From contig NZ_CP179200.1 of the NCBI RefSeq assembly GCF_051201565.1, positions 240,001 to 272,000 of the forward strand: a stretch of DNA of 32,000 nt. Direction: 5' to 3'. The number at the start of each line of letters is the position of its first letter. Position 1 is the stretch's first letter. Positions 1-17,552 of this stretch are shown one piece after another. The notes below the pieces were generated by a model that made no database searches, was not told the DNA's origin, and saw nothing but the letters and a program-made list of their open reading frames with translations. The stretch comes from Pseudothioglobus sp. nBUS_23. GTDB lineage: Bacteria > Pseudomonadota > Gammaproteobacteria > PS1 > Pseudothioglobaceae. Position numbers and translations under genes: made by a program.

Positions 1-618
1 CTGGATGTTGTCAAAGACAATAATGCACTGGATTTAGTTTCTGAAATCTTTGGTCCAAATATCACTCATTTGGGAAACAAAATAAATCTCAAGTTACCTG
101 GTGCTGGAACTGAAGTAAAGTTCCACCAAGACTTTCCTTTTGAGCCGCATTCAAATGAGGACATTATGACGGTGCTTTATTTTTTGGATGATGTGACTCT
201 GGATAATGGGCCATTAGAGGTCGTCCCAGGGACACATAACGGGCCACTCCACTCTCATTGGCAGAATGGTATTTTTACAGGTGCAGTGGATGACAAAGTT
301 ATGGAGTCGAACAAGAACAAAGCTATAAAGTGCACTGGAAAGGCGGGCTCTGCTTGCCTCATGCATTCAAAGTTACTGCATGGTTCAGCGCCGAATTTAT
401 CGGCCCATTCAAGATCTCTCTTTATTGTGACCTATAAGGCTGAGGATGCAGTAGCTCTTTCACCAAACCATCTCCCTAGTGAGCTTGTTGGAATGGTTGT
501 TAGAGGGAAAGAAACTGGAACTGTCAGGTGTACTAGTTACAGTATTGAGTTACCAGAGTACCCTAAAGAGGTCTCTTTCTTTGGCCAACAATCAAAAAGT
601 AAAAACATGGCAATGTAA
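1..618 (+). CDS. Fe(II)/2-oxoglutarate dioxygenase, phytanoyl-CoA dioxygenase (PhyH) family; 5'-partial
   Basis: Frame 1 is open from nt 1 (LDVVKDNNALDLVSEIFGPN...), so the TTG at 70 is not the real start. It has the HxD triad motif KFHQDF, LDNGPLEVVPGTH, and a distal His in LLHGSAPN, all typical of the PhyH fold. Confidence 0.8.
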   Translation: MDVVKDNNALDLVSEIFGPNITHLGNKINLKLPGAGTEVKFHQDFPFEPHSNEDIMTVLYFLDDVTLDNGPLEVVPGTHNGPLHSHWQNGIFTGAVDDKVMESNKNKAIKCTGKAGSACLMHSKLLHGSAPNLSAHSRSLFIVTYKAEDAVALSPNHLPSELVGMVVRGKETGTVRCTSYSIELPEYPKEVSFFGQQSKSKNMAM

Positions 619-703
619 AGCCAATCTTAACTTTTAGTACTTTATACATGAAGGGGATACAATCGACTTAATCAAAAAAATTTCTATAGTCGGCGACGAG
701 CTG

Positions 704-1795
704 GTGATTGACTGGAATGATGGGAATAAAAGCTCACTCTTCAGCTACTGGCTCAGGGATAACTGCCAGATGCCTGAATCAAGAAACGAGAATAATGGCC
801 AAAGACTCTTTAGTGTTAAAGACTTACCTGAAGATGTATCCATAGAGAAGGCTTATAAGGATGAAAACGGAGATGTTTGTATCCTATTTCAGCCTGAAAA
901 TCACTTATCAGTCTTTACGCAAGATTGGCTACTCTCCAATTGCTATGACCTCAATGATCACTTTGATGACAGGAGCGAGAAACAAAAAATGCTCTGGCAA
1001 AAAAATAGTTTTGAGAATGGACTGCCACTAATTGACTATGATTTAATGAGCAAGGATGAGATAAAATTAAAAGCGCTTTGCTCCTTGAGAGACATAGGTT
1101 TTTTTGTTTTAATGGGTGTCCCGACAGTTGAAGGACAAGTATTAAAAGTCATCAGTGAAATGGGTTACACTCGGGAGACCAACTATGGAGCTCTGTTTGA
1201 GGTGAGAACTGAAGTCAACCCAAACAATCTTGCTTATACCAACCTAGGGCTTGGATCTCACACCGATAATCCATACCGAGACCCTGTCCCAACGGTGCAG
1301 CTGCTGCATTGTCTCGAGAGCTCTACCGAGGGCGGAGATTCAATCTTGGTTGACGGCTTTAAGGCCGCCTCAATTCTTCGTGATGAAAGCGAAGAGAGCT
1401 TTCTAACCTTGGCTAGTAACTGGATTAATTATCGATTTACTGATTCTAAAACTGATCTCCGCTCAAGGGTCCCGATGATCGAGTTAAATGACAATCATGA
1501 GATTATCAAGGTCAGATATAACAACCGATCAATCGATACAATTAATGTCCCAAAAGATAAAGTAAGGCTTTTTTATAAGGCCTACCGTCACTGGAGCGAG
1601 GTCATTGAGAGAGACGAATTGAAGATTCAATTCAAGCTTTCTGAGGGGGATTTAATGCTGTTCGATAACACTCGAGTTATGCACGCCAGAACTAAGTTTT
1701 CAAAAACTGGAAAGCGCCACCTACAAGGAGCCTATACAGATTTAGATGGACTTTACAGTCTCCTAAATACATTAGAAGATAAAAAAAATGACTGA
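704..1795 (+). CDS. gamma-butyrobetaine hydroxylase-like / TmpA-like Fe(II)/2OG dioxygenase (TauD/BBOX superfamily)
   Basis: BBOX-type N-terminal domain (LVIDWNDG...LFSYWLRDNC), HxD in GLGSHTDNPY, distal His in RVMHAR, and Arg in GKRHLQGAY. The in-frame coding signal continues upstream of GTG-704 to about 650, so the true start is probably earlier (see finding). Confidence 0.8.
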   Translation: MIDWNDGNKSSLFSYWLRDNCQMPESRNENNGQRLFSVKDLPEDVSIEKAYKDENGDVCILFQPENHLSVFTQDWLLSNCYDLNDHFDDRSEKQKMLWQKNSFENGLPLIDYDLMSKDEIKLKALCSLRDIGFFVLMGVPTVEGQVLKVISEMGYTRETNYGALFEVRTEVNPNNLAYTNLGLGSHTDNPYRDPVPTVQLLHCLESSTEGGDSILVDGFKAASILRDESEESFLTLASNWINYRFTDSKTDLRSRVPMIELNDNHEIIKVRYNNRSIDTINVPKDKVRLFYKAYRHWSEVIERDELKIQFKLSEGDLMLFDNTRVMHARTKFSKTGKRHLQGAYTDLDGLYSLLNTLEDKKND

Positions 1796-2351
1796 GATTA
1801 CTTCGCAAAATGTTGTAGACCTTATTGAAGATATTTTTCTTCGGCGCGGCGCTGAATCATACCTTGGTGAACAGGTCACGATGGCACAGCACATGCTTCA
1901 AACGGCCCAATGTGCTGAAGAGGCTGGCGCTGATGGTGCTCAAATAGTGGCAGCACTTCTTCATGATATAGGTCATTACAAAAACGAAATTCCTGAGTCA
2001 TCTTTGGCAAAGGGAGTGAACAACTTTCATGAGGAGGCAGGTGCAAATTTTCTGGAAGAATATTTCCCGGCTTCCGTTGTCGAACCGATTCGTCAGCATG
2101 TTGCAGCAAAACGTTATTTGTGTGCAGTTAAAGCAGATTATTTTGAGCGCCTATCTGCAGCCTCAGTTCATACTCTTAATCTTCAGGGTGGACCAATGAA
2201 TGAGAAAGAAATAGAAGAATTTGAAAATAATGATTATTTAGATCACTGCATAAATTTAAGATATTGGGATGAAGAGGGGAAAGATCCAGATAGAGAACAT
2301 CCTCCATTTTCATACTACCGCCCATTAATTGACTCTTTATTAAAAAATTAA
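1788..2351 (+). CDS. HD-domain protein with diiron-oxygenase ligand pattern (PhnZ/TmpB-like candidate)
   Basis: 187 aa with H35, H59-D60 (LLHDIGH), H81, H104 (RQHVAAKRY) and D161 (RYWDEEG). This is the H..HD..H..H..D six-ligand pattern. It overlaps the upstream dioxygenase by 8 nt (ATGACTGA). Confidence 0.7.
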   Translation: MTEITSQNVVDLIEDIFLRRGAESYLGEQVTMAQHMLQTAQCAEEAGADGAQIVAALLHDIGHYKNEIPESSLAKGVNNFHEEAGANFLEEYFPASVVEPIRQHVAAKRYLCAVKADYFERLSAASVHTLNLQGGPMNEKEIEEFENNDYLDHCINLRYWDEEGKDPDREHPPFSYYRPLIDSLLKN

Positions 2352-2508
2352 CTATATAAATTTAGTTCTTAACTAGACTCTTTCAAAAGAGTAAGATTAA
2401 GCCCATATACATTAAACCTTGAGGTATATATAATATCCCAGAGTGTTAGATAGGCCTTATTGCACGGAATATTTGTTAATTTTATAAAATGATGGACTAA
2501 ATCAATAA

Positions 2509-2973
2509 ATGAGTAACGGTAAATTATTAATAATAAATGGACCTGGATTATCAGATTTAAGTGATCATAATGAGGTAGCTAATGATGACTTATCTTTGTC
2601 TGTTATAGAGCAAAAATGCATTGAGACTTCAGGTAAATTTGGTCTCGAAGTGGATTTTCGTCAAAATGATGATGAATCTGAGCTTTTGAGTGGCTTGATT
2701 AATGATATTAATAATTTTGATGCTTTCATAATTAATCCAGCTGCACTCTCAAAATCATCAGTGATAAATTACGATGCTTTTAGTTCAGCAATTAGTGAAA
2801 TTAGCAATCAAAGTAAGCCAGTTATTGAAGTCCGTATAGAAAATATCTTCAAGCGGAATGTCAGTAAGCCTTTGCAAGTCCCTGAGAGTGGGTTAGGCTT
2901 TATTGGCGGACTTGGTAAGCATGGTTACGTGCTGGCTATTCGGTCAATTAACAAAAAACTAAGCAATCAATAA
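2509..2973 (+). CDS. type II 3-dehydroquinate dehydratase-like protein, catalytically degenerate paralog
   Basis: Collinear with AroQ (LLIINGP..., IINPAA, EVRIEN, GLGKHGY). The lid Arg/Tyr (REPxxYG) is absent, the His of AYTHTS is absent, and HISN is replaced by RIEN. Its stop directly abuts the ATG of the canonical aroQ. Confidence 0.65.
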   Translation: MSNGKLLIINGPGLSDLSDHNEVANDDLSLSVIEQKCIETSGKFGLEVDFRQNDDESELLSGLINDINNFDAFIINPAALSKSSVINYDAFSSAISEISNQSKPVIEVRIENIFKRNVSKPLQVPESGLGFIGGLGKHGYVLAIRSINKKLSNQ

Positions 2974-3417
2974 ATGAATATATACGTCATAAATGGTCCA
3001 AACATAAATCTTTTAGGTACGCGTGAGCCTGAAATTTATGGCAGAGATACTCTAGAAGGTATTGCTATAGATTGCCAAGAAAAAGCATCAAAAGATGGCC
3101 ATATTGTTAAATTTATGCAGTCTAACTATGAGGGCGAGATTGTAGAATGGATCCAAGATGCAATTATGCAGAAAGTAGATGCGATTGTAATCAATGCTGC
3201 TGCATATACTCATACATCAATCGCCATTCATGATGCATTAAAGTCATATTCAGGTTACAAGGTTGAGTTACACATTTCCAATCCACATCTGCGTGAATCA
3301 TTTCGCCACGTTTCTTTTATTTCTCCCGCAGTTGATGCAGTTATTGCTGGGTTGGGGGCTGAAGGTTACGGCCATGTTGTTGATCTATTATCAGAGTTAC
3401 CAATTAAGGTTAATTAA
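2974..3417 (+). CDS. aroQ: 3-dehydroquinate dehydratase, type II
   Basis: Canonical motifs are all present: VINGPNINLLGTREPEIYG, INAAAYTHTS, ELHISNPHLRESFRH, GLGAEGY. Length is 147 aa. Confidence 0.9.
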   Translation: MNIYVINGPNINLLGTREPEIYGRDTLEGIAIDCQEKASKDGHIVKFMQSNYEGEIVEWIQDAIMQKVDAIVINAAAYTHTSIAIHDALKSYSGYKVELHISNPHLRESFRHVSFISPAVDAVIAGLGAEGYGHVVDLLSELPIKVN

Positions 3418-4922
3418 AGAAGAATAGGGTAATATCTTCTAATTGAAGCCTCAATCTCATCCGATAAATAATTTGGATGGTGATTCAGTAATTCTTTGGC
3501 TTTAGTTTTGGCTCTGCTAAGATGATCTAGGGCTCCTTGCTCTTGCCATACAGTCGGCTCCTCTCGGTCAGCAATCGATGGATAAAAATAATCCCTTTCC
3601 ATAGATAGCATGGTTTCTGGTTGACCTAGAAAATGACCCGTATCACTGACGACAGATTGAATCGAATCAAACTCTAAACTTTGGTTATTGACCTCTATGC
3701 CTCTTATCATTCTATAAACAAGCGACAGCATCTCATCATCCATAACGAAGGCCTCAAATGATGCGCCCAATAAACTTGCCATCATTCCTGATGATTCATA
3801 GATCATATTTCCACCTGCTAAACCGCATGCCAAGGCAGTGAGGGCTTTCTCCATTCCCATTTGAGCATCGGGTGCTTTGGCATCGCTCATACTTGAAGCG
3901 CATCCCGAGGGTAAACCTAGAGAGTTCGACAACTGCGCCGATGCAGCATTGAGTAATGCCATCTCGCCGCTTCCTCCTCTGAAAGCGCCAGTTCTTAAAT
4001 CGATAGCAAGAGGCCAATTACCAAAAATCATTGGGTATCCAGGTTCAAAAACATTCGTCATTATGAGGGTTGAGAGAGTTTCAGCTAAGGTCAGTGAGAG
4101 TGACCCTGCGATTGGTCCAGGTGAGGTGGCTCCTGGCATGGCAGCAATAATATTATTAATCGGAACGCCTCTTTTCATGCAGGCTATGGCAACCATGACC
4201 GCATCTTCGCCAAATTTAAGAGGCGATATGACAGGACTGATATGAGCTTTGCAAAAAGGCTTTTCAGAAAACTTACCTTTCCCACCAAGAGCCATATCAA
4301 ACATGTCAATTATGGGATCAACATGTTCGTCAATATGAAAGCTCATTCCTACCGGCTTGGTTGTTCCTTTGAGAAGGGCGTAGGCGGTATTGACGTCAAG
4401 TTCATAGTTATCATGAACATCGGTTGCAATGCAGCAGCGTGTAAACCAACTTACATTTGGTAACTGATCTATCAGACGAGTAAAGTCATATAAGTCTGCT
4501 AAGGTCGAAGGACGATACTCTTCAGTATCAATATCTAAAGTCTGAACTGCTGCGCCTCCTGTACCGAAATATACTTTATCACCGCCAACGACTATGTCAT
4601 GCTTTGATTCTCGACCGAAGAATGTAAATTCTTTGCAGGAGGATGAGATGATGCTTTCAACCATTGATGCTGGGAAACATAATCTATTCTGAGAGTTAAT
4701 TTTTGCTCCATGTTCTAAGGCCTGCTTTTCAAGAACTTTTGGAACGTCGGTCATTCCAATTTGCTCTAGAATCCGTAATGACTCGTTATAAATTGTTTTG
4801 ACTTGAGAGTCTGAGAGTGGCTTGTATTGACCTCCAGACTGACCAGGGGGGCATGGGTTGATTTCAGGAGCCTTGGCTCTCTGGGCTTGTTTAGCTGCTC
4901 GTGCTGATTGTCTTCTTGCCAT
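3414..4922 (-). CDS. trimethylamine methyltransferase (MttB) superfamily protein, non-pyrrolysine; quaternary-amine methyltransferase candidate
   Basis: 502 aa uninterrupted ORF with no in-frame TAG. It has the Arg/Ala-rich N-terminus (MARRQSARAAKQAQRAK) typical of proteobacterial MttB homologs and a TIM-barrel-length body. An AGGAA RBS is present, and it lies 14 nt downstream of the DMGDH-family gene. Confidence 0.8.
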   Translation of the reverse strand: MARRQSARAAKQAQRAKAPEINPCPPGQSGGQYKPLSDSQVKTIYNESLRILEQIGMTDVPKVLEKQALEHGAKINSQNRLCFPASMVESIISSSCKEFTFFGRESKHDIVVGGDKVYFGTGGAAVQTLDIDTEEYRPSTLADLYDFTRLIDQLPNVSWFTRCCIATDVHDNYELDVNTAYALLKGTTKPVGMSFHIDEHVDPIIDMFDMALGGKGKFSEKPFCKAHISPVISPLKFGEDAVMVAIACMKRGVPINNIIAAMPGATSPGPIAGSLSLTLAETLSTLIMTNVFEPGYPMIFGNWPLAIDLRTGAFRGGSGEMALLNAASAQLSNSLGLPSGCASSMSDAKAPDAQMGMEKALTALACGLAGGNMIYESSGMMASLLGASFEAFVMDDEMLSLVYRMIRGIEVNNQSLEFDSIQSVVSDTGHFLGQPETMLSMERDYFYPSIADREEPTVWQEQGALDHLSRAKTKAKELLNHHPNYLSDEIEASIRRYYPILL

Positions 4923-4936
4923 CGATTATTCCTAGG

Positions 4937-7372
4937 TTACGCTAGTATTCTACTATAGCTTTCATCGTAGGGTCCAAATGGAATGACCTCAACAGAGACC
5001 AATTCTCCTAATAAATCTAAATGCATTTGTGTCCCCTCTTTTGATTTGTCAATGTTTACAAATGCATAGGCAAGGTTGAGATTAACTCTGTGACCCCACT
5101 CACCAGATGTAATTGTTCCAACTACTTTTCCACTCTCCATTAGCGATGCTCCACCATATGCTGGGGCATGTTTGCATGCTACCTTTAGACAGACAAGTTT
5201 TTGATTTGGGCTTTGTTTAATTCTATTTTTTAATGCCTTTTTGCCAATAAAGTTATCTTTCTTTAGATTCACGAAGCGGTCAAGGCCAGTTTCAAAAGGA
5301 TCAAACTCAGTGATTAAATCGGACTTCCATCCCAGAAACCCTTTTTCCATTCTCATAGACTCTACCGCTCTGGACCCAAAGAGTTTTATTCCAAACTCTT
5401 CTCCTGCTTCAGTGAGTGCTAGGTATGCGGCATACAGAGATTCATTGGGTACATGCACTTCATAAGCGAGCTCACCAGAGAAACTCACTGACATTACGGT
5501 GGCCGGAGAAAAGCCAATGAAACATTCTCTTACACTGAGCCATGGAAATGACTCCTTGCTCCAATCTTCGCGACTGCATTTGGAGAGGACTTCTCTCGCT
5601 TTTGGTCCAGCTAAAAGGAGTATTGTTTGGTCATTTGTTAGGCTTTTGATTGAAGTATCTTCATCATCTTTTAATTGCTGAACTAGCCAATCCATATCGT
5701 GAAACTCAGAGGCCGCAGCTGAGCCATACCACATTCTTTTTGGGCCACGGTCTGAAGCTGGAATGTTGGATATAGTGGCTTCACTTTTTATCATTCCAAA
5801 CTCATTAAGAAGGTAACCTAAACCAACTCGGCCTGATTTCTGGGTAATGTTGCCGCAAAACATTCGGTCAACAAAACTGTTGGCATCTGAGCCAGTAATT
5901 TCAAATCGATTAAAGCCATTCACCTCGGTAAGTCCTACATTATTTTGGACATTTTTTACTTCGTTTGCGATAACATCAAATGCTTCATCAAAGTGAAACG
6001 AGAGAGAAGGGTGGAAGTCTTTTGAGGGCTTAATATATTCAACACGCTCCCATCCATTAATCACAGTAAATTCTGCATTTGCATTTGCCATGACTGGAGT
6101 TAGAGGAGTAGTTTTGGCAGGGCGAGCTGCGGGGCGGTGCTCGTGTGGAAAGTGAAAACGAAATTCGTTTTGATAGTCTTCGATAGCCTTTAACGAAGTC
6201 ATTTCAACATTTGTGTGAGAGGTAAATCTTCGAGGATCCAGGCACCACGTATCATAACATGCTTCACCATGAACAATTTGTTGAGCAAGGAGCCAGCCAT
6301 GCCCGCCACCTTCACCAAGGCCTGCTCTTAGACCTATGATGCAGAATGCGTTTTCTTTTCCAGGAATTTTTCCAACCAGTGGGGCTCCATCAATTGTATA
6401 AGTAATTGGGCCATTAATGACACTTCTTATTCCAGCATTCATTAACGCAGGCATTCGATCAAATGCTCCCTCTAATACATCTGTAACTCTCTCTAAATCA
6501 TCTGGACAAAGAGCATTGACAAAGTTTGGATCAATCCCATCCATTCCCCATGGTTTACAATTCTGTTCATAGAATCCAATCAAAAGTCCATTCTTATCTT
6601 GTCGACAATAATAGTCAGATATTGGGCACCTTAAAAGAGGCATTCGGCGACCTGAATCTATAATCTCTTGAATATCTTCGGTCAGAAAATACTGATGCTC
6701 CATTGAGGCTACTGGATGATGAACACCCATCATTGCGCCAACCTCATTAACCCTATATCCGCAGGCATTTACAACAACATCACAATCAACCCCACCATTT
6801 TTGGTGGTTACTTTCCAGGTCCCATCCTGGTATTGCTCTAGAGCAGTTACTGGAGTATTTGTGTAGACCTCAGCGCCAGCCTGTCGGGCTTTTCGCGCCA
6901 AAGAGTGACATAACTGATATGGATCTATATCACCATCTAATGGATCCCACAACCCACCAATTAAGTTTTTTGTTGAAATTAATGGGTGACGTCGATGACA
7001 TTCTTTGGCATCTATTACTTCAAAATTAACATCCATGCCCCGAGCCATTGAGGCGAAGTGATGATAACCTTGCATTTGCTCTTTGGTATTGGCAAGCCTT
7101 ATTCCACCATCACCATGATTATAGTTAATTGGATAATCAGGGTCGTCAGCCAATTCTTTGTATAGATTAATGGAATGTGTTTTTAAACCAACCATTGTTT
7201 GATTCATTCCAAAATTAGTAACCTGAGCTGCTGAGTGCCAAGTCGTACCACTAGTCAAATCATTTCGCTCAAGAAGAACAACATCTGTCCAACCCTCTTG
7301 GGTCAGATGATAAAGGGTCGAGCAGCCTGCAATACCACCGCCAATGACAACAACCTTTGTTCTAGTTTTCAT
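4937..7372 (-). CDS. dimethylglycine/sarcosine dehydrogenase family flavoprotein (DAO FAD domain fused to GcvT-type folate-binding domain)
   Basis: 811 aa. N-terminal VVVIGGGIAGCS Rossmann motif, flavinylation-type His in SGTTWHSAAQ, and a C-terminal aminomethyltransferase-like region. AGGAG RBS. Confidence 0.85.
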   Translation of the reverse strand: MKTRTKVVVIGGGIAGCSTLYHLTQEGWTDVVLLERNDLTSGTTWHSAAQVTNFGMNQTMVGLKTHSINLYKELADDPDYPINYNHGDGGIRLANTKEQMQGYHHFASMARGMDVNFEVIDAKECHRRHPLISTKNLIGGLWDPLDGDIDPYQLCHSLARKARQAGAEVYTNTPVTALEQYQDGTWKVTTKNGGVDCDVVVNACGYRVNEVGAMMGVHHPVASMEHQYFLTEDIQEIIDSGRRMPLLRCPISDYYCRQDKNGLLIGFYEQNCKPWGMDGIDPNFVNALCPDDLERVTDVLEGAFDRMPALMNAGIRSVINGPITYTIDGAPLVGKIPGKENAFCIIGLRAGLGEGGGHGWLLAQQIVHGEACYDTWCLDPRRFTSHTNVEMTSLKAIEDYQNEFRFHFPHEHRPAARPAKTTPLTPVMANANAEFTVINGWERVEYIKPSKDFHPSLSFHFDEAFDVIANEVKNVQNNVGLTEVNGFNRFEITGSDANSFVDRMFCGNITQKSGRVGLGYLLNEFGMIKSEATISNIPASDRGPKRMWYGSAAASEFHDMDWLVQQLKDDEDTSIKSLTNDQTILLLAGPKAREVLSKCSREDWSKESFPWLSVRECFIGFSPATVMSVSFSGELAYEVHVPNESLYAAYLALTEAGEEFGIKLFGSRAVESMRMEKGFLGWKSDLITEFDPFETGLDRFVNLKKDNFIGKKALKNRIKQSPNQKLVCLKVACKHAPAYGGASLMESGKVVGTITSGEWGHRVNLNLAYAFVNIDKSKEGTQMHLDLLGELVSVEVIPFGPYDESYSRILA

Positions 7373-7492
7373 ATGAACTCCTATTTATTTTTATATTTTT
7401 AACCTTTTTTTTTCGAAAAAGTTGTTAAAAAACTAAACATACTGTTCGAATATATTTGACAGGAATATGATAGGATGGGTTAAACTTGCAAA
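7373..7492. promoter_or_regulatory. divergent control region between the DMGDH-mttB operon and lysR
   Basis: Two palindromic TTCGAA hexamers (7412-7417, 7445-7450) lie 33 bp apart. Candidate leftward promoter: TTCGAA-N16-TATAAA (7417->7390). Candidate rightward promoter: TTGACA (7456-7461)-N17-GTTAAA (7479-7484), ending only ~8 nt before ATG-7493. Confidence 0.3.
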
Positions 7493-8389
7493 ATGAAATT
7501 CAGATCTTTTGACTCATTTAGAGTATTTGAAAAAGTTGCTCAACTCGAGAGTATTACTCTAGCAGCAGAAGCATTAAATTTATCAAAAAGTGCCATTAGT
7601 TATCAGATTACTAAGCTTGAGAACGAGCTTGGATTTTTACTTTTTGATCGTGTTAATTCAAGATTGGTATTAACAACTAAAGGTCGAAGATTATGGTACG
7701 TTGCTGAATCATCATTGAATCAAATTGAGAGAGAGATTAACCTGCTTCGTGGTGAGAATTCAGGGACAGTCAAAGTAGGAATTGTCTCTTCATTTGCTTC
7801 AAGATGGCTATCACCAAGATTAACTAATTTTTTTGAGCAATGTCCCGATTTAGGTCTAAAAATTGAGTCTATTAATTCAATAGATGAGTTTAGTAATGCT
7901 GATTTTTCATTAGCCATATTATGGGGAGATTCCTGGAGTGATTTTGAGTATGAATTATTAATGCCCACTTCATCATTCGTTCTTGGTAACAGGAAAATCT
8001 ATGAACAAACTAGATCCATTACGTTAGAGGAAGCAATGAAAAAAATTCCTTTGCTTAATGACGGTTTTTATGGAGGTAATGGAGGAATGCAGGCTTGGCA
8101 TAGGCAAGCTAATCTTGAATATAATCCATCAAAGAGTAGCCTCAAAATTACTGATGCCTCTACAAGACTTCAGGCAGTTGTTGATGGACAAGGTATTGCC
8201 TTGTGGGATGAGTTAGTAAATGAAGAGATTGAGTCTGGAAAATTATTTTATATTTCTGATATTATGCTTCCAGGTTTTGGTTATCACCTGGTATATAAAA
8301 ATAAAAATTCATTATCTATTGAAGAAAAAAATTTTTGTAAATGGATCAAGAGTGAGCTTCCGAAACAAACTAATAGTAAAACTCTATAG
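7493..8389 (+). CDS. LysR-family transcriptional regulator
   Basis: N-terminal wHTH (FEKVAQLESITLAAEALNLSKSAISYQITKLENELGFLLFDR) followed by a LysR substrate-binding domain. It is divergent from the catabolic operon. Confidence 0.9.
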   Translation: MKFRSFDSFRVFEKVAQLESITLAAEALNLSKSAISYQITKLENELGFLLFDRVNSRLVLTTKGRRLWYVAESSLNQIEREINLLRGENSGTVKVGIVSSFASRWLSPRLTNFFEQCPDLGLKIESINSIDEFSNADFSLAILWGDSWSDFEYELLMPTSSFVLGNRKIYEQTRSITLEEAMKKIPLLNDGFYGGNGGMQAWHRQANLEYNPSKSSLKITDASTRLQAVVDGQGIALWDELVNEEIESGKLFYISDIMLPGFGYHLVYKNKNSLSIEEKNFCKWIKSELPKQTNSKTL

Positions 8390-8972
8390 TTGAGACTGAA
8401 ACATCGGAAATATGATCTCTGCCATAGGCAACAATACCAAAACTCCTAATTTTTTTAGGATCTAATCTCGAATCTTTTGACCATCTGCGTTCGAATTTAT
8501 TGAAAGGGAGGTCAATCATTTTCCAATCTGCATCAGCTTTGAAAGTTGTAGCATAATAGTCAGAGGGAGACCAGCTTTCATTGGTTCTAATATGTATGTA
8601 ATAGGTTTCTCCATTTCCTCTTACATTAAGACGAACACCTTGGAGGTTTTTTCCCTCTTTTTCTGAGTTGGCGAATGAGACACTGGCTCGCAACTGAATG
8701 AAGCCACCATTATTCGCAGTGCTAACGTTCCCTGTAAGTCTCGCATAATACATTTCTCCGTCTTGCTCAAGTGAGACTTGACCATCTGAGACTCCACCCA
8801 TTACGCGATCGCTAACATATTGCCAGTACCTCCCACTGTCAGCATTAAATGGATAAGAGAGAGTCTCCTCATCTGCAAAAGTCTTTGTGTTGAATACGAG
8901 CATTGATAAAGACATGAGAACTAGAGTTAAAAAATGATTTAATTTATTTATATAAATGGATTTAAAGCGCAT
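8370..8972 (-). CDS. secreted CIA30-domain protein (complex I intermediate-associated protein 30-like)
   Basis: Signal-peptide-like N-terminus (LTLVLMSLSMLVFNTKTFA/DEE). The WQYVSDRVMGGVSDG motif is characteristic of CIA30 domains. Its 3' end overlaps lysR by 20 nt, convergently. Confidence 0.6.
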   Translation of the reverse strand: MRFKSIYINKLNHFLTLVLMSLSMLVFNTKTFADEETLSYPFNADSGRYWQYVSDRVMGGVSDGQVSLEQDGEMYYARLTGNVSTANNGGFIQLRASVSFANSEKEGKNLQGVRLNVRGNGETYYIHIRTNESWSPSDYYATTFKADADWKMIDLPFNKFERRWSKDSRLDPKKIRSFGIVAYGRDHISDVSVSTIEFYY

Positions 8973-9044
8973 AAATAGGTAATGAATTTTTCAAGGAAAT
9001 TTTATTATAGGTTTTTTATTGTTTCATTAAATTTTTTTGTTGAA

Positions 9045-9070
9045 AAAAGCCGGCAATTGCCGGCTTTTAG
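9045..9070 (-). terminator. rho-independent terminator after amtB
   Basis: Perfect palindrome AAAAGCCGGCAATTGCCGGCTTTT followed on the minus strand by a T-run (TTTTTTCAACAAAAAAA). Confidence 0.75.
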
Positions 9071-9093
9071 TTTCTTAAATTAAGAGTCTAGAG

Positions 9094-10365
9094 TTAAAGG
9101 TTGTAACCCGTTTCTCCATGGCTATCAAGGTCAAGACCTTGGGTTTCAGTCTGTGAATCCACTCTTAATCCAGTTACAACATCAACAATTTTAAGAATCA
9201 CGAATGTCGCAAGAGCTGTATAGACTGCAGTAGCCACAACAGCTGTTAATTGAATCTGTAATTGATCACTAATCACAATCGCTTCATGGCTCCAGCCACC
9301 TTGGCCTGAAAAAATTCCAAGCTCTTTCGATGCAAAAAATCCAACCAAAATTGTTCCACATATACCTCCAACGCCATGCACTGGAAAGACATCAAGAGAG
9401 TCATCAATCTTGAATTTTTGTTTGATAATGATGACTGCATTGAAACATACAGCACCAGCAATAATTCCAATAACTAAGGCTCCAGCAGGTCCCACAAAGC
9501 CAGAGGCAGGAGTAATGGTTCCAAGACCTGCAACCATTCCAGTTACTGATCCAAGAGCGGTTGGTTTTCCAAATTTAATCCATTCATAGAACATCCAGGT
9601 CATAGCACCTGCTGCCGCAGAGATATGAGTAGCAAGGATTGCCATTGCAGCATCTCCACCAGCAGAGAGTGCAGAGCCACCATTGAAACCGAACCATCCA
9701 ACCCAAAGCATTGCAGCGCCTATAAAAGTCATAGTCATATTGTGAGGTGGAATTGGCTTTTTAAGAAATTCCTGTCTTGGACCAAGTACAATAGCCGCAA
9801 CCAAAGCAGCAACACCTGCGGTGATGTGAACGACTGTTCCGCCAGCATAATCAAGGGTATCGCCAAGCCATCCGCCGCCCCATACCCAGTGAGTAATTGG
9901 AGCATAAACGACAAATAACCAAATGCTACTAAATAACAGTACAGCAGAGAACTTCATTCTCTCTGCAAAGCCACCCACGATAAGGGCAGGCGTTATAATG
10001 GCAAATGTCATCTGAAACATTGCAAAGAGCGACTCTGGAATTGAGCCACTGACACTGTCTATAGTGACTTGGGCTAACATAAAGTTAGATAAGTTTCCTA
10101 TAAATGGGTTATCACCTGAGAATGCGAGGCTGTATCCAGCAATAAACCATAACATGCTAACAATTCCAGCAATGGCAAAACATTGCATCAGAACCGATAA
10201 AATGTTGTTTGAGCGGACAAGTCCTCCATAGAATAGTGCGAGTCCTGGAAGCGTCATAAACAAGACTAGTGCAGTAGATGTCATGATCCAGGCAGTATCG
10301 GCGCCATTTATGACGTCCGCAAAGGCCGTCATTGGCAATAAAGCCAATAGTATAAATTTTTTCAT
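9094..10365 (-). CDS. amtB: ammonium transporter
   Basis: Signal peptide followed by DTAWIMTSTALVLFMTLPGLALFYGG, plus the twin-His region and other Amt family motifs. It lies 9 nt downstream of glnK. AGGAGAG RBS. Confidence 0.95.
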   Translation of the reverse strand: MKKFILLALLPMTAFADVINGADTAWIMTSTALVLFMTLPGLALFYGGLVRSNNILSVLMQCFAIAGIVSMLWFIAGYSLAFSGDNPFIGNLSNFMLAQVTIDSVSGSIPESLFAMFQMTFAIITPALIVGGFAERMKFSAVLLFSSIWLFVVYAPITHWVWGGGWLGDTLDYAGGTVVHITAGVAALVAAIVLGPRQEFLKKPIPPHNMTMTFIGAAMLWVGWFGFNGGSALSAGGDAAMAILATHISAAAGAMTWMFYEWIKFGKPTALGSVTGMVAGLGTITPASGFVGPAGALVIGIIAGAVCFNAVIIIKQKFKIDDSLDVFPVHGVGGICGTILVGFFASKELGIFSGQGGWSHEAIVISDQLQIQLTAVVATAVYTALATFVILKIVDVVTGLRVDSQTETQGLDLDSHGETGYNL

Positions 10366-10374
10366 TGAGCTCTC

Positions 10375-10713
10375 CTAAAGTGCGTCGTGGTCCGTTTCGC
10401 CTGTGCGAATACGAACTACTTTTTCGATGTCAGTGACAAAGATTTTGCCATCACCTTTTTTTCCGGAACGAGCGATATCGCTAATTGTATTAATTAGCAG
10501 ATCCAAATTTTTATTTGAGATTGCGATTTCAAGTTTTACTTTGTGAACAAATTCAACGGTAAACTCAGTACCACGATATAACTCCGTGTGACCTTTTTGT
10601 TTTCCAAAGCCTTTAACTTCAGTTACTGTCATGCCTGGAATATCGACATCACAAAGAGCCTCTCTAACTTTATCTAGGTTTTCGGGCCTTAAAATTGCTG
10701 TAACTAATTTCAC
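10375..10713 (-). CDS. glnK: nitrogen regulatory protein P-II (GlnK)
   Basis: (M)KLVTAILRP...TVTEVKGFGKQKGHTELYRGTEF...GDGKIFV...IRIRTGE. A GTG at 10713 gives exactly the canonical 112 aa and is preceded by AAGGAAG-N7. The ATG at 10752 in the track adds 13 non-homologous residues and has no RBS. Confidence 0.9.
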   Translation of the reverse strand: MKLVTAILRPENLDKVREALCDVDIPGMTVTEVKGFGKQKGHTELYRGTEFTVEFVHKVKLEIAISNKNLDLLINTISDIARSGKKGDGKIFVTDIEKVVRIRTGETDHDAL

Positions 10714-10796
10714 TTTTATCTTCCTTGAACTATTAATATCTTCCGTAGACATCTTGGAATAATATCCGACATTGGCTCCTTGGAAGCTACATTGCT

Positions 10797-10822
10797 AAAA
10801 AACAGCCGCTTCATTGCAGCTG
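10797..10822 (-). terminator. rho-independent terminator after the HAD-family gene
   Basis: On the minus strand: CAGCTGC-AATGAA-GCGGCTG followed by TTTTTT. Confidence 0.55.
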
Positions 10823-10840
10823 CAAGTCTATTATAGATTA

Positions 10841-11533
10841 TTAGATTTTTTTTTGATGCTTAATCTGATTTTCAAATAAAAGATTTGGTGAAAGATCTTC
10901 AGTAACAAGGTGAGCATTACTAAAGTTGTTGTCATGAGCAAGTGCTCCAGGAAATGCAATACATTTCAAGTTTGCGTCAATTGCCGATCTCATGCTGACT
11001 TCGGTGTCCTCTATTGCAATACATTCATCTGCACTTAAGTTAAGTTCAGAGAGCGCTTTAAGGTAAATTTCAGAATTAGGTTTAGGCTGAGAAACAATCT
11101 TGTCATTTCCTATGAAGCTAAAGTCACTTTTTTTAATTTGATTATCAAGCGCAAAGAACATAGCATCAATGTTGGCCTTCGAAGTGCTAGTCACGAATGC
11201 TAAATGAATACTATTTTCATGAGCATAATTAATCAAGTGAGATACTCCAGAACGAAGTGAGATTTTTTCATCACTCATCAAGCTGTCAAAGATCTCAGTT
11301 TTTCTTAGATGAAGTTCATCAGCATTGACCTCGATTCCAACTTGATTTGCAAAATCATTGATACGATTTCGTCCACCAGACTTTTTGAGCATTGTTTGAT
11401 ATTCTTCAATTGACCAATTCCAGTCAAGGCCTGCTTCAGAAAAAGCTTGATTAAAGGATTTGAGCTGAAGCTCAGAAGTTTCAACTATTGTTCCTATAGA
11501 TCCGAAGAGAATTGCTTTGTAATTTATTGTCAT
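10841..11533 (-). CDS. HAD-superfamily hydrolase-like protein (subfamily IA type) with degenerate motif I
   Basis: Motif II (AFVTSTS), motif III (Lys in QPKPNSEIY) and motif IV (AIEDTEVSMRSA) are present. Motif I reads ILFGSIGTIVETSE instead of hhhDxDGT. Confidence 0.7.
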   Translation of the reverse strand: MTINYKAILFGSIGTIVETSELQLKSFNQAFSEAGLDWNWSIEEYQTMLKKSGGRNRINDFANQVGIEVNADELHLRKTEIFDSLMSDEKISLRSGVSHLINYAHENSIHLAFVTSTSKANIDAMFFALDNQIKKSDFSFIGNDKIVSQPKPNSEIYLKALSELNLSADECIAIEDTEVSMRSAIDANLKCIAFPGALAHDNNFSNAHLVTEDLSPNLLFENQIKHQKKI

Positions 11534-11627
11534 ATCTATTAATTTTTCTTATTTTTCACAAACCACTCAAGGGATGAGGTAGTTTGTAATTGTTAAAATG
11601 AGGATGGATAAAAAAAGAGGCATTTAA

Positions 11628-11717
11628 TGGTGGAGGGACAGGGATTCGAACCCTGGAAGGGTATTAGCCCTTGCTGGTTTTCAAGACCAGTGCATTCAAC
11701 CGCTCTGCCATCCCTCC
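11628..11717 (-). tRNA. tRNA-Ser (anticodon UGA)
   Basis: The reverse complement reads GGAGGGATGGCAGAGCGGTTGAATGCACTGGTCTTGAAAACCAGCAAGGGCTAATACCCTTCCAGGGTTCGAATCCCTGTCCCTCCACCA. It has a 7-bp acceptor stem, anticodon loop CTTGAAA, a long variable arm, a GGTTCGAATCC T-arm, and an encoded CCA. Confidence 0.93.
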
Positions 11718-11829
11718 AAAAGATTGGTATGATACCGTTTTTATGCATAAAGTATATAAAATTTATTTAAAAAAACTACATTTTTTTGCGTATAATTCTC
11801 ACTTTTTAGAAATTCATTAGGTAGTCGTA

Positions 11830-12066
11830 ATGTCTAAAGTATGTCAAGTAACTGGTAAGAGACCAATAAGCGGAAATAACGTTTCGCATGCTAACAATAA
11901 AACGCGTCGCCGTTTTTATCCAAACCTTCATACACACCGTTTTTGGGTTGAAGCTGAAAACCGCTTTGTTAAGCTTAAATTATCAGCACGTGGCCTTCGT
12001 GTCATTGACAAGAAGGGTATTGATGCTGTTTTAGAAGAGATCCGTGGACGCGGCGAAAAGGTATAA
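11830..12066 (+). CDS. rpmB: 50S ribosomal protein L28
   Basis: [33 protein letters not shown]... gives a full-length match to the L28 pattern. Confidence 0.95.
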
Positions 12067-12076
12067 GGAGTAATTT

Positions 12077-12232
12077 ATGAGAGAGAAAATTAAACTAGTT
12101 TCTTCAGCTGACACTGGTCACTACTACACTACAACAAAAAATAAAAGAATTCATCCTGAGAAGGTTGAGGTAAAAAAATTCGATCCCGTCGTTAGAAAGC
12201 ACGTGATGTATAAGGAAGCCAAGATCAAGTAG
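12077..12232 (+). CDS. rpmG: 50S ribosomal protein L33
   Basis: Not in the ORF track (51 aa): [51 protein letters not shown]. An AAGGAG RBS sits 7 nt upstream. The rpmB-rpmG order is conserved. Confidence 0.9.
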
Positions 12233-12250
12233 TTATAAGATAGGATTTAA

Positions 12251-12277
12251 AAAAAGCCGCTTTACGCGGCTTTTTTA
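12251..12277. terminator. bidirectional rho-independent terminator between rpmG and acnB
   Basis: AAAAAGCCGC-TTTAC-GCGGCTTTTTT, with an A-run and a T-run flanking a GC-rich stem between convergent genes. Confidence 0.8.
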
Positions 12278-12288
12278 TTACCTATTAT

Positions 12289-14847
12289 TTAGCTTTGGAG
12301 AATTACTTCGAGTGCAATATTAGATGAAGACTCTTGATAATCTGCAATCTGATCAAAGTTTAGGTATTGATAAATTTCACCAGACAAAGGCTCAATATCT
12401 TTCATTAACGATAGGTACTCCTCAGGTGTAGGAATGTAGCCTAATTTTGCTGAGATGGCAGCAACCTCTGCAGAAGCCAAGAAAACGTCACTGTTGTCAC
12501 CGAGCCTATTTGGGAAGTTCCTTGTGGACGTAGATACAACTGATGCACCTTCTTCTACCCTAGCTTGATTACCCATACAGAGGGAGCAGCCAGGGACCTC
12601 AGTTCTGTCTGTCAGGCGCTCAAATGTCTCATAAATTCCTTCTGCCCTTAACTGTTTTTCATCCATCCTTGTGGGCGGTACTACCCACAAAACAGTATTC
12701 AGCTCAGATTTATCTTTGAGAAGCTGAGCTGCTGCTCTAAAGTGCCCAATGTTAGTCATACAAGACCCAATAAAGACTTCATCGATAGAGGTTTTGGCTA
12801 CTGATGAAAGAAGTCTGACATCATCTGGATCATTAGGACATGCCAATATAGGCTCTTTAATTTCTGCTAGATCTATTTCAATAACTTCTGCATACTCGCA
12901 ATCTTCATCAGCCTCAAGAAGCTCTGGATTATCAAGCCATTTTTTCATGTCCTGGATCCTCTTTGCTATTGTTTTTTTATCATCATAGCCAGAGTCAATC
13001 ATAGAGCCAAGAAGTGTAATGTTTGAGTTGAGGTATTCCTCAATAGGCTCTTTATTTAGTTTGACAGTGCAGCCATTAGCTGAACGCTCAGCAGTAGCAT
13101 CTGCAAGTTCAAAGGCTTGTTCAACCTTAAGGTCACCGAGCCCTTCAATTTCCAGAACGCGGCCAGAGAAAATATTCTTTTTGTTGGATTTATCAACAGT
13201 AAGTAGTCCTTTTTGGATAGCAACATAAGGAATTGCATTGACCAGATCTCTTAGAGTAATTCCCGGCTGCATTTCACCTTTGAATCTGACTAACACAGAC
13301 TCAGGCATGTCAAGAGGCAGTACGCCAATGGACGCTCCAAATGCGACGAGTCCAGAGCCTGCTGGAAAGCTAATTCCTATTGGGAAGCGTGTGTGTGAAT
13401 CTCCGCCAGTGCCAACTGAGTCAGGAAGAAGCATACGATTCAGCCACGAGTGAATAATGCCGTCCCCAGGTTTGAGAGAGACGCCACCCCGGGAATGCAT
13501 AAAATCTGGAAGTGTATGTTGAAGTTCTAGGTCAATCGGTTTTGGATAAGCAGCTGTATGACAAAAACTCTGCATCACAAGGTCTGCCGAAAACCCTAAA
13601 CAGGCTAACTCTTTTAGTTCATCACGAGTCATTGCACCTGTTGTGTCTTGCGATCCAACGGTACTCATTCGGGGCTCACAATACGTTCCAGGTCGAATAC
13701 CCTTAACGCCACAAGCTTTACCCACAATTTTTTGAGCCAAGGTAAATCCTAATTCGCTATTCTTTGGGTCAACCGGACGAAGAAAGACATCACTGACATC
13801 AAGCCCTAGTTCAGATCTCGTTTTGTCGGTGAGACCTCTACCAATAATTAGAGGAATCCTGCCGCCTGCCCTGACTTCATCTGGCATCGTGCTTGGAGCA
13901 AGATCAAACTTTGAGACAACTTTTCCAGACGCATCTTTAATAACCCCCTCATATGGAAATATTGTAATTTCATCCCCCATATTCAGTTCAGAAACATCGC
14001 ACTGTATTGGAAGCGCCCCAGAATCCTCTGCAGTGTTAAAAAATATTGGAGCAATCTTTCCACCAAGCACTATTCCACCACTATTTTTGTTTGGGATATA
14101 GTCTATTGGTTCTCCCATATGCCATAACACTGAGTTAATGGCTGATTTTCTTGAAGAGCCAGTACCCACTACATCGCCTACATAGGCTAAAGGAAGACCT
14201 TTTTGCTTAAGTTCTTCAATTTTTTCAAGAGGCCTATCCATTTTTTTGATGAGCATCGCTTTCGCATGAAGCGGAATATCTGGTCTTGACCAGGCCTCAG
14301 TGGCTGGAGACAGGTCATCTGTATTGGTTTCACCATCTACGCGAAAAACAGTCACATTGATGCTTTCAGGAAGAGGCTCTTTCGATGTAAACCAATCTGC
14401 CGATGCCCATGAATCAACAATTTTTTTGGCGTACGAGTTGCTTGAGGACTTTTCTAGGATTTGTTGATGAGCTTCGTAAATTAGAATAGTGTGCGAGAGC
14501 GCCTCACAGGCTGCCTCAGCAGTTTCCTCATCATCAAGAAGGTCGATTAACGATGCAATACTATAGCCACCAAGCATCGTTCCTAATAGAAAAGTAGCGT
14601 GTTTTTTTGTTATGGCATTGCATGTTTCTTCACCCTTAGCGACACTAGTGAGAAAGCCTGCTTTGACGTATGCTGCCTCATCAACCCCTGGCGGCACTCT
14701 GTGCGTTAGAAGATTCAAGTAAAAATCATCATCATTGCCCTCTAAAAGGCATTCAACTACTGATTTTGTTTGTTTGGCGTTTAGCGCCAAAGGTGGAAGA
14801 TTTTCTGACTCTCTTTCATCGCAATGCTTTAGGTAAGCTTCTTTCAT
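12289..14847 (-). CDS. acnB: aconitate hydratase B (bifunctional aconitase 2 / 2-methylisocitrate dehydratase)
   Basis: The homologous N-terminus begins at [26 protein letters not shown] (ATG 14847), giving 852 aa. Cluster-ligand motifs IGSCMTN and GCSLCMGNQ are present. The 43 extra residues in the track ORF are AT-rich promoter sequence and would overlap purB. Confidence 0.93.
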
Positions 14848-14908
14848 AACTGTACTGAATATAAGGTGATTAAATAAATAGAGTATAATTTTATCCTTTT
14901 TGATATGA

Positions 14909-16306
<1,398 letters not shown>

Positions 16307-16362
16307 AACTGATATAATTTCCCGCCTTAATAATTTAACAATCAAAAAGGAGCAAAAAACCC

Positions 16363-16944
16363 ATGGTTAAGATTAGACTAGCCCGAGGTGGAGCCAAGAA
16401 AAACCCTTTTTATTCGATTGTAGCAACAGACTCTAGAAAGAGAAGAGACAGTGGTTACATTGAGCGTATTGGATACTTTAATCCTGTTGCTCGCGGACAA
16501 GAAGTCAGGCTTCAACTCGAAGAAGACAGACTGTCATACTGGATTTCTCAGGGAGCACAGATTTCAGATCGCGTCAAGCAGCTTGTTAAGGAATATAAAG
16601 ACCCATCTATTCGTGAAAAGCAGTTAGCAATGCAGGCAGCTAAAGCTGATGAAAAGGCTAAAAAGATTGCTGCAGAAGAAAAAGCAAAGGCAGATTTAGA
16701 GGCTAAAGAGGCTGCTGAGGCCGCAGCTCAAGAAGCGGCAGCAGAAGAAGCCGCAGCAGCAGAAGCAGAAGCAGAAGCTCCAGCAGAAGAAGCTCCAGCA
16801 GCAGAAGCAGAAGCAGAAGCTCCAGCAGCAGAAGCAGAAGCTCCAGCAGAAGAAGCTCCAGCAGAAGAAGCTCCAGCAGAAGAAGCAGAAGCTCCAGCAG
16901 AAGAAGCCGCAGAAAAGCCAGCTGAAGAGCCTGAAGAAAAATAA
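16363..16944 (+). CDS. rpsP: 30S ribosomal protein S16 with long C-terminal Ala/Glu/Pro-rich extension
   Basis: The first ~80 aa ([41 protein letters not shown]...) form canonical S16. The remaining ~113 aa are low-complexity KA/EA/AEEAP repeats. AAGGAG RBS, with a TATAAT at 16313-16318. Confidence 0.92.
16735..16912 (+). repeat. in-frame imperfect tandem repeat (15/18-bp units GCAGAAGAAGCTCCA / GCAGAAGCAGAAGCTCCA) inside rpsP
   Basis: Visible directly in the sequence. It encodes AEEAP/AEAEAP units and also creates the spurious antisense ORF 16728..16955. Confidence 0.85.
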
Positions 16945-16945
16945 T

Positions 16946-17467: not shown

Positions 17468-17552
17468 TCAGAATTAAAAAAAATCTGCGTTTATCTGTTC
17501 TAGTTAGGTACACTTATTAGTGGATTAAAACTTAACTTCAGAAACATATTTC

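Follow-up and report, generated by a model that had tools for sequence, protein, structure and literature searches.

We analysed a 32-kb stretch of the chromosome of Pseudothioglobus sp. nBUS_23 (contig NZ_CP179200.1, forward-strand positions 240,001 to 272,000; hereafter, the window), a gammaproteobacterium of the SUP05/PS1 clade (Thioglobaceae). Two gene modules in this window flank a conserved pair of type II dehydroquinase genes, aroQ' and aroQ, in a part of the chromosome that varies among members of the clade (Table 1). Module 1, PhyH-tmpA-tmpB, is predicted to act on 2-(trimethylammonio)ethylphosphonate (TMAEP), and module 2 comprises an operon for a DMGDH-like flavoenzyme and an MttB-like protein together with a divergent LysR gene. 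The original prediction had read the two as a possible single-locus route leading from TMAEP via glycine betaine and dimethylglycine to sarcosine. The comparative evidence presented below points elsewhere: the locus probably holds two separate nutrient-acquisition modules that stand side by side and do not form a dedicated pathway.

Gene calls were based on the open reading frame (ORF) listing and on profile searches against Pfam and NCBIfam. The genes named in the original prediction lie where it had placed them, and its family assignments (TmpA/TmpB, MttB superfamily, DMGDH family and LysR) agree with the domain and profile matches; the PhyH gene and the two dehydroquinase genes had been overlooked. 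In module 1, tmpA and tmpB overlap by 8 nt and are translationally coupled. In module 2, the gene for the DMGDH-like protein is the first of the operon and ends 14 bp upstream of the MttB gene, the second, and the LysR gene is indeed divergent from this operon, as predicted, across the 120-bp intergenic region. The modules were said to be immediately convergent, but aroQ' and aroQ intervene, and the overlap with the 3' end of the MttB gene (4 nt) is formed by the 3' end of aroQ rather than tmpB. Convergent as they are, the TmpAB and DMGDH-MttB modules therefore cannot share a transcript. Of all promoter-like matches in the region, the best falls in the 157-bp gap between tmpB and aroQ'; overall, their frequency is that expected by chance: promoter-like and terminator-like sites in 1-9100, including the promoter matches in 7373-7492, were not commoner than in shuffled sequence.

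The two intervening genes differ in how well their products match the family models. The aroQ product scored 196 bits against NCBIfam NF003806 (cutoff, 171), and that of aroQ' fell below the cutoff of every NCBIfam aroQ model. The tandem is kept across SUP05 loci (L001, L002, L003, L006, L013, L014 and L017; L-numbers denote the comparison loci or contigs of relatives), with or without either module, and aroQ' is an intervening core gene that belongs to neither module. The pair serves as an anchor with variable cassettes on either side in SUP05 genomes.

Table 1. Features of the two modules and their immediate surroundings (positions in the window)
Feature	Position	Strand	Support
PhyH-family Fe(II)/2-oxoglutarate dioxygenase, 5' end cut by window edge	1-618	+	Pfam PhyH, 83 bits
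TmpA-like TauD/GBBH-family dioxygenase	704-1795	+	NCBIfam TmpA, PDB 6npb
TmpB-like HD-domain diiron oxygenase	1788-2351	+	PDB 6npa, ligand set
Divergent type II dehydroquinase paralogue (aroQ')	2509-2973	+	Pfam DHquinase_II, 68 bits
Canonical type II 3-dehydroquinate dehydratase (aroQ)	2974-3417	+	Pfam, 175 bits
MttB-superfamily protein, 502 aa, non-pyrrolysine	3414-4922	-	Pfam MTTB, 338 bits
DMGDH/SARDH-family FAD/folate amine demethylase, 811 aa	4937-7372	-	DAO, FAO_M, GCV_T, GCV_T_C
Divergent intergenic region, 120 bp, presumed promoter/operator	7373-7492	.	position only
LysR-family regulator, GcvA-like	7493-8389	+	HTH_1 and LysR_substrate
CIA30-domain protein gene	8370-8972	-	3' overlap with LysR gene, 20 nt

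The PhyH-tmpA-tmpB module

The tmpA-tmpB pair has the organization of TmpA/TmpB from Leisingera caerulea, reportedly the subject of Rajakovich et al. 2019 and represented by PDB entries 6npb-d and 6npa: a GBBH-like Fe(II)/2-oxoglutarate (2OG) hydroxylase followed by an HD-domain diiron oxygenase. Because the TmpA-like protein exceeded the NCBIfam cutoffs for both TmpA (NF049936, 423 bits; cutoff, 400) and gamma-butyrobetaine dioxygenase (BBOX; TIGR02409, 477 bits; cutoff, 415), hidden Markov models alone cannot separate the two. The higher score for TIGR02409, and the name gamma-butyrobetaine dioxygenase that TmpA homologues carry in most public records, would favour a left module that is a true BBOX acting on gamma-butyrobetaine or carnitine. 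In a search of solved structures, however, the protein matched TmpA 6npb far better (321 bits) than human BBOX (186 bits), and it is 46% identical to the L. caerulea enzyme, with the H-x-D...H iron ligands and the 2OG-binding Arg in place. According to a structural paper, TmpA binds the phosphonate via N187, N287 and R288, whereas BBOX uses two asparagines. The equivalents of these residues here, N175, N274 and R275, are invariant in 8 aligned sequences; at the site of the TmpA Arg, human BBOX reads NNAT, with Ala replacing Arg.

The gene context argues in the same direction. To place the pair in a broader frame, we surveyed the best 80 TmpA loci, one genome per GTDB species, from SUP05, other Gammaproteobacteria, Kitasatospora/Streptomyces, Ruegeria, Kiloniella and others, and sought neighbours by sensitive phmmer searches over all ORFs within 10 kb of TmpA. 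A TmpB homologue adjoins TmpA in 74 of these 80 loci, and the only known role of a PhnZ/TmpB-type HD oxygenase coupled to such a gene is cleavage of a C-P bond. With the Arg, the partner gene and the structural match all on the side of TmpA, a genuine BBOX is highly improbable, and the SUP05 'gamma-butyrobetaine dioxygenases' encoded beside HD genes are, as far as can be told from sequence, TmpA proteins mislabelled in public records.

The TmpB-like protein likewise resembles solved TmpB 6npa (191 bits) more than PhnZ, its second-best solved match (121 bits). It stays below the cutoff of the NCBIfam TmpB model NF049941 (259 bits; cutoff, 300), which is still its top-scoring model, and below that of the Phn-HD model TIGR03276 (199 bits; cutoff, 215). 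The diiron ligand set H..HD..H..H..D and the substrate-gated YxxE loop, which a review describes for TmpB, align with 6npa (the loop reads YLGE here). Thus, the iron and 2OG ligands, the N/N/R triad, the TmpB ligands and the YxxE loop are all shared with the L. caerulea proteins, from which the present pair differs in its host (a SUP05-clade gammaproteobacterium, not a roseobacter), in the sub-cutoff score of TmpB, in an extra PhyH-family gene before tmpA that is found in the SUP05 lineage only, and in the lack of an adjoining transporter or regulator gene. The PhnY*/PhnZ pathway for 2-aminoethylphosphonate (AEP) follows the same logic of an Fe/2OG hydroxylase and then an HD diiron oxygenase, but the hydroxylase adjoining the HD gene here is of the GBBH/TauD type and not of the PhyH type. 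The triad, the TmpB partner and the preference for solved TmpA/TmpB over BBOX and PhnZ uphold the original prediction for the left module.

From this orthology and the conserved active-site residues, TmpA would hydroxylate C1 of TMAEP, and TmpB would cleave the C-P bond to yield phosphate and glycine betaine. We hold this assignment of module 1 with good confidence. TmpAB has been described as the sole known pathway of TMAEP degradation, with glycine betaine and phosphate as products, and it has been suggested in general terms that TMAEP might also supply carbon, energy or nitrogen. A search of plasmids for TmpA returned no match from L. caerulea, a species with MttB paralogues on plasmids.

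The annotated start of tmpA deserves comment. Its first canonical start codon (GTG, 704) lies about 20 codons inside the N-terminus of homologues, and the upstream region (620-760, + strand) has no ATG, GTG or TTG at the point where homologues start; the in-frame sequence reads ...YFIHEGDTIDL..., with ATA at the position of a relative's start codon. Translation probably begins some 20 codons before GTG 704, from a rare start codon, unless the protein has a truncated N-terminus.

The PhyH gene is the first of the unit in SUP05, and it was found upstream of tmpA in SUP05 loci only. Its orthologue in L001 (9103-9978) is full length (291 aa) and 98% identical; it scored 63 bits against the NCBIfam ectoine hydroxylase model (cutoff, 336) and 31 bits against that for methylphosphonate hydroxylase (cutoff, 500), and the best PDB match of the PhyH protein is EctD (44 bits). 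Its similarity to characterised phosphonate hydroxylases is thus remote. The PhyH protein could be a second hydroxylase that feeds the same HD oxygenase. When the region ahead of the PhyH gene was searched for Pho boxes in five relatives, the matches were weak throughout, with 4-5 mismatches.

In some relatives, extra genes without a Pfam match are inserted in the tmpAB unit. A 442-aa soluble protein is encoded between tmpB and aroQ' in L003 (11735-13063) and also in L013, L014, L098, L100, L103 and L105. In L002 the inserted gene (8954-9943) lies after the PhyH gene and before tmpA, and its 329-aa product has a hydrophobic segment at the N-terminus. Considered as candidate transporters, these proteins were rejected, having no Pfam match and at most one hydrophobic segment.

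The LysR/DMGDH-like/MttB-like cassette

The MttB-like protein matches Pfam MTTB (PF06253) over nearly its full length (residues 4-497). It falls into the same non-pyrrolysine MttB TIM-barrel family as MtgB of Desulfitobacterium hafniense (PDB 2qne/9yce), its best solved relative, with which it shares 29% identity (209 bits), followed by pyrrolysine (Pyl) MttB (169 bits) and the Sinorhizobium meliloti protein 4yyc (145 bits). The codon at the position of the Pyl UAG is ATG (Met345, 3890-3888), the ORF has no in-frame stop, and the Pyl-MttB model TIGR02369 gave 345 bits against a cutoff of 525. An Rfam match to PYLIS_3 (3791-3890, - strand; 40.8 bits against a gathering score of 38) lies inside the MttB ORF and starts at the Met345 ATG; it was rejected as a pyrrolysine insertion element and judged to be an echo of coding homology because there is no UAG.

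The original prediction assigned to this protein the demethylation of glycine betaine. A 2026 structure-function study of MtgB shows that glycine betaine is bound by Y97 and F356 through cation-pi interactions and by R312 and H348 through contacts with its carboxylate; activity was undetectable in R312L, whereas H348E showed only a trace, and this at substrate concentrations of at least 1 M. The same study reports R312 to be conserved in MtcB, MtpB, MthB and MtyB, whose substrates are other quaternary amines bearing an acid group. In the window protein, the four MtgB positions Y97, R312, H348 and F356 correspond to G123, G340, E376 and L384, and this G/G/E/L combination is invariant in nine members of the MttB clade from distant taxa. 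A shift of the alignment at these positions is unlikely, because the local alignment is anchored by the GxPS motif and by the G-N...S-E-F-MDDE string; the PDB chain numbering of MtgB is offset by 2, and the offset was checked with all four binding residues. The S. meliloti protein 4yyc is, by contrast, the MtgB-like one: with a score of 405 bits to MtgB, it retains Y97, R312 and H348, from which it follows that MtgB-type enzymes exist in aerobes. Thus, the original prediction stands as regards the MttB superfamily, whereas its glycine betaine step meets a site in which all four MtgB residues for this substrate are replaced. Sequence comparison places the window protein in a widespread, uncharacterised clade that is not MtgB, and glycine betaine as its substrate is, in our view, a tentative possibility that we would rather doubt than assume.

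Characterised MttB-family enzymes require a corrinoid protein, a pterin-binding methyltransferase and a reactivase as partners. None of these three is encoded in the window, which is a further difference from the MtgB system with its MtgC and MtgD, and neither a corrinoid protein nor a methylcorrinoid:tetrahydrofolate methyltransferase is among the recurrent neighbours of the MttB clade. In aerobic marine bacteria, genes for mtgC/mtgD-type partners can be scattered across the genome, as published work reports.

The other protein of the operon has the same DAO/FAO_M/GCV_T/GCV_T_C architecture as mammalian DMGDH (4p9s, 5l46) and Arthrobacter dimethylglycine (DMG) oxidase (DMGO, 1pj5), with scores of 515 bits to rat DMGDH (residues 2-794) and 253 bits to the Arthrobacter enzyme. 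It reached no NCBIfam equivalog cutoff, and the paper on human DMGDH reports that docking cannot separate DMG from sarcosine. For the LysR protein, the best NCBIfam match was GcvA (169 bits), below the cutoff of 288.

We then surveyed 80 metagenome loci of the window-MttB clade, about 60 of them outside SUP05. In 72 of the 80, the MttB gene is directly preceded by the gene for the DMGDH-like protein, the exceptions being mostly contig ends; the characterised DMGDH and DMGO are not paired in this way. A divergent LysR homologue is present in at least 38 of the 80. MttB relatives that are 62-77% identical occur in Aliamphritea, Leucothrix, Arenicellales, Granulosicoccus, Oceanospirillaceae and Hyphomicrobiales, and plasmid-borne orthologues (56-64% identical) in Leisingera, Ruegeria, Roseobacter and Mesorhizobium. 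The complete LysR/DMGDH/MttB trio was also found in Aliamphritea ceti, in other gammaproteobacterial metagenome-assembled genomes (MAGs) and on plasmids of Leisingera, Roseobacter and Mesorhizobium. It is often located beside an ABC transporter of the betaine/proline/choline type (in Aliamphritea ceti and on the alphaproteobacterial plasmids), and the Mesorhizobium cassette also adjoins a gene for a GlxA-family regulator. From this conservation, the DMGDH-MttB pair clearly appears to be a functional unit that acts on an imported quaternary amine. The MttB-like enzyme would take one methyl group off the quaternary amine and pass it to a corrinoid protein whose gene lies elsewhere in the genome, the next methyl group would be removed oxidatively onto tetrahydrofolate by the DMGDH-like flavoenzyme, and LysR would control the operon, making up a self-contained cassette of many Gamma- and Alphaproteobacteria.

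Other neighbours of the cassette vary with lineage. In several lineages, a conserved flank block encodes a PALP enzyme (annotated as D-cysteine desulfhydrase), a DegT-type aminotransferase, an amino-acid racemase and a HisD-like dehydrogenase (L008/L009, 11643-15924; L172, 1120-5309); it follows the MttB gene in L008 and lies beyond the flavoenzyme gene in Leisingera. Outside SUP05, where it often flanks the cassette and a betaine/choline-type ABC transporter is frequently close by, this block hints at a quaternary amine derived from an amino acid or an amino alcohol as the substrate. A gene with a PhnD-like 'Phosphonate-bd' domain stands beside the cassette LysR in four non-SUP05 loci and in L008/L009.

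In SUP05 relatives of the window, the MttB gene is succeeded almost directly, on the same strand, by a PF02574 (homocysteine S-methyltransferase family) gene, so that the order is DMGDH-MttB-SMT. It was found downstream of MttB in eight SUP05 loci (L095, 6216-7136; L096, 11502-12374; L098, L100, L103-L105 and L014), of which L095 and L096 are the closest relatives to retain it, with MttB 95% identical to that of the window; relatives without MttB have this gene by itself in the same place. The gene has been lost from the window, where tblastn detected no remnant. The DMGDH-MttB-PF02574 order would fit the published view in which MttB-family proteins serve as the methyl-donor modules of a cobalamin-dependent system that resembles a split methionine synthase. 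It also recalls the Ruegeria pomeroyi MtgBCD(E) system (Mausz et al. 2025), with which the locus shares an aerobic or microaerobic marine host and a DMGDH-family neighbour, as in marine mtgB neighbourhoods, the PF02574 gene of close SUP05 relatives being MtgE-like. Because the PF02574 gene fills the same slot in relatives, the MttB/DMGDH pair was also considered as a functional replacement of a BHMT-like gene. This idea was discarded, given that the PF02574 gene co-occurs downstream of MttB in the eight loci and that its product matches the BHMT model poorly (88 bits; cutoff, 338). Beyond the PF02574 gene in L003 (15145-18504) lie genes for an NTP-transferase, a CDP-alcohol phosphatidyltransferase and a class V aminotransferase, a set reminiscent of phosphonolipid or phosphocholine head-group metabolism.

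Co-occurrence of the two modules and its interpretation

A single-locus route would be expected to show in the joint conservation of its two halves, which the original prediction itself had named as a check, and such conservation was not found. Of the 80 TmpA species loci, 2 have an MttB-family gene within 10 kb (L014 and L062) and 3 a DMGDH-family gene (L014, L017 and L062). Conversely, MttB-clade loci with TmpA/TmpB are confined to contigs of SUP05 type (MttB at least 84% identical to that of the window), and TmpA/TmpB occurs in none of the approximately 60 MttB-clade loci outside SUP05. In the loci surveyed, the recurrence of TmpAB beside MttB/DMGDH is hence limited to SUP05, plus L062 with its distant paralogues.

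Within SUP05, the loci share a backbone of NfeD, PhyH-tmpA-tmpB, aroQ'-aroQ, a variable slot, and CIA30-amtB-glnK ... acnB. Both modules are present in the window, L014, L098-L100, L103, L105 and L109. TmpAB occurs without MttB/DMGDH in L001-L003, L013 and L018, and with DMGDH only, lacking MttB, in the complete genome L017. MttB/DMGDH occurs without TmpAB in L006/L107 and L101, where other genes fill the PhyH-tmpAB slot (an MFS transporter, a kinase and nirBD in L006), and probably in L095 and L102, of which only about 2 kb of the flank is visible. In L004, an inositol-type catabolic island follows directly after tmpB. The variable slot holds the PF02574 gene alone in L001-L003 and L013, the PF02574 gene with MttB-DMGDH in L014, L098, L100, L103 and L105, DMGDH alone in L017, and MttB-DMGDH-LysR in the window, L092-L094 and L099. 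Because the adjacency is confined to one family, in which all three testable combinations occur, it appears to reflect shared ancestry with gain and loss around the aroQ pair.

The one locus outside SUP05 is L062, from an unrelated gammaproteobacterial MAG. There (9385-18378), a tmpB-tmpA-HAD set is accompanied by a LysR gene divergent from genes for MttB-like (26% identical) and DMGDH-like (30% identical) proteins, both distant paralogues of those of the window; its nearest TmpA relatives, L019-L022, L028 and L037, are without such a set. Marine proteobacterial genomes of this kind are reported to carry up to seven MttB paralogues, so that it would be no surprise to meet such a co-localisation once or twice by chance in a few dozen loci (a rough reckoning, without calculation). 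No link of tmpAB genes to MttB or DMGDH genes was described in the literature that we searched, in keeping with the original prediction, whose author was aware of none. Thus, on present evidence, the tmpAB-MttB/DMGDH linkage seems to be undescribed but not a conserved feature.

The rest of the window carries housekeeping genes (CIA30, amtB-glnK, acnB, purB, rpsP, rimM, truA, birA, hisF and others). The CIA30 family is known from the assembly of eukaryotic complex I, and the position of the CIA30 gene beside LysR is conserved in SUP05 relatives. Ribosomal protein S16 (16363-16944, + strand) extends at its C-terminus into a tail with AEAPAEE-like repeats and a high content of Ala, Glu and Pro (about 110 residues), which accounts for a spike of 0.30 in AT skew in the 16-17 kb bin. 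A gene for 6S RNA was identified at 28312-28492 (- strand; Rfam, 96.6 bits) and a tRNA-Ser(TGA) gene at 11628-11717 (- strand).

How should the adjacency be read? Several observations weigh against the reading of two separate modules. The chemistry fits, as the product of TmpB would be a quaternary amine of the class used by MttB-family enzymes. The modules occur together in 9 of the 13 SUP05 loci that were ascertained through MttB and have a visible TmpAB side, and in L062, tmpB-tmpA lies about 3 kb from its LysR/MttB-like/DMGDH-like set in what is an independent arrangement; from these two facts, proximity of the modules may possibly confer a selective advantage. Glycine betaine is kept plausible as a substrate of the MttB homologue by the betaine-type ABC transporters and the GlxA-family regulator beside orthologous cassettes, and by the published MtgBCD model for marine bacteria, SUP05 included. 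Moreover, the residue argument is drawn from a single characterised enzyme, and it is possible that glycine betaine is bound in another mode. On such grounds one could maintain that TMAEP is converted to glycine betaine by TmpAB, to dimethylglycine by MttB and to sarcosine by DMGDH, with proximity selected for and expression coordinated. The succession of reactions agrees with the gene families present, the modules are separated by about 1 kb and share a locus in several SUP05 contigs, and marine bacteria including SUP05 are reported to demethylate glycine betaine with MtgB and MtgC/MtgD, genes for the downstream demethylases often lying near mtgB in marine Alpha-, Gamma- and Deltaproteobacteria. 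We nevertheless consider such a route unlikely. The two halves are not conserved together outside one family, inside which each is also found alone; they are convergent, with two core aroQ-type genes between them; the MttB protein has Glu where H348E leaves a trace of activity in MtgB and Gly where R312L leaves none; a true MtgB-type protein with the binding residues is known from aerobes; and the window has no gene for a corrinoid or pterin partner.

A different coupling would have MttB and DMGDH act on the aminophosphonates themselves, converting TMAEP to dimethyl-AEP and methyl-AEP, with PhyH and the HD oxygenase finishing the less methylated products. This would give a role to the second dioxygenase of the SUP05 tmpAB unit, weakly similar to methylphosphonate hydroxylase and otherwise unexplained, and to the PhnD-like genes beside cassette LysR genes, and it would agree with an MttB active site unlike those of all carboxylate-binding members. 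Yet the cassette is widespread without a TmpAB or PhnZ-type gene nearby, the adjacent transporters, where present, are of the betaine/choline type, and the loss of the acid-binding Arg and His argues equally against a phosphonate. In addition, aminophosphonates are not among the known substrates of any FAD enzyme with this architecture, and PbfB/C/D lack a GcvT domain. We regard this scheme as very improbable. Somewhat less remote, although still improbable, is a combined view: the cassette would be a widespread two-step N-demethylation system of marine and soil Proteobacteria, with a binding site unlike those of characterised MttB enzymes and, in SUP05 relatives, an additional MtgE-like gene, and its placement beside PhyH-tmpA-tmpB in SUP05 would reflect a real coupling that yields phosphorus, methyl groups and nitrogen from TMAEP. 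In the reading that we favour, with two separate modules, it is chemically possible that glycine betaine released by TmpB is used by module 2, which would be an ordinary metabolic hand-off and not the mark of a co-evolved unit.

The findings bear on the biology of the clade in several ways. The good TmpA/TmpB orthologues described here would extend the use of TMAEP to the SUP05/PS1 clade, and a widespread DMGDH-like/MttB-like cassette is recognised in its own right; its MttB clade should not be annotated as glycine betaine methyltransferase from family membership alone. If the coupling of the two modules were true, a highly abundant clade of oxygen-poor ocean water would be capable of the complete mineralisation of a quaternary aminophosphonate, and the marine phosphonate cycle would be tied to methyl-group and osmolyte metabolism.

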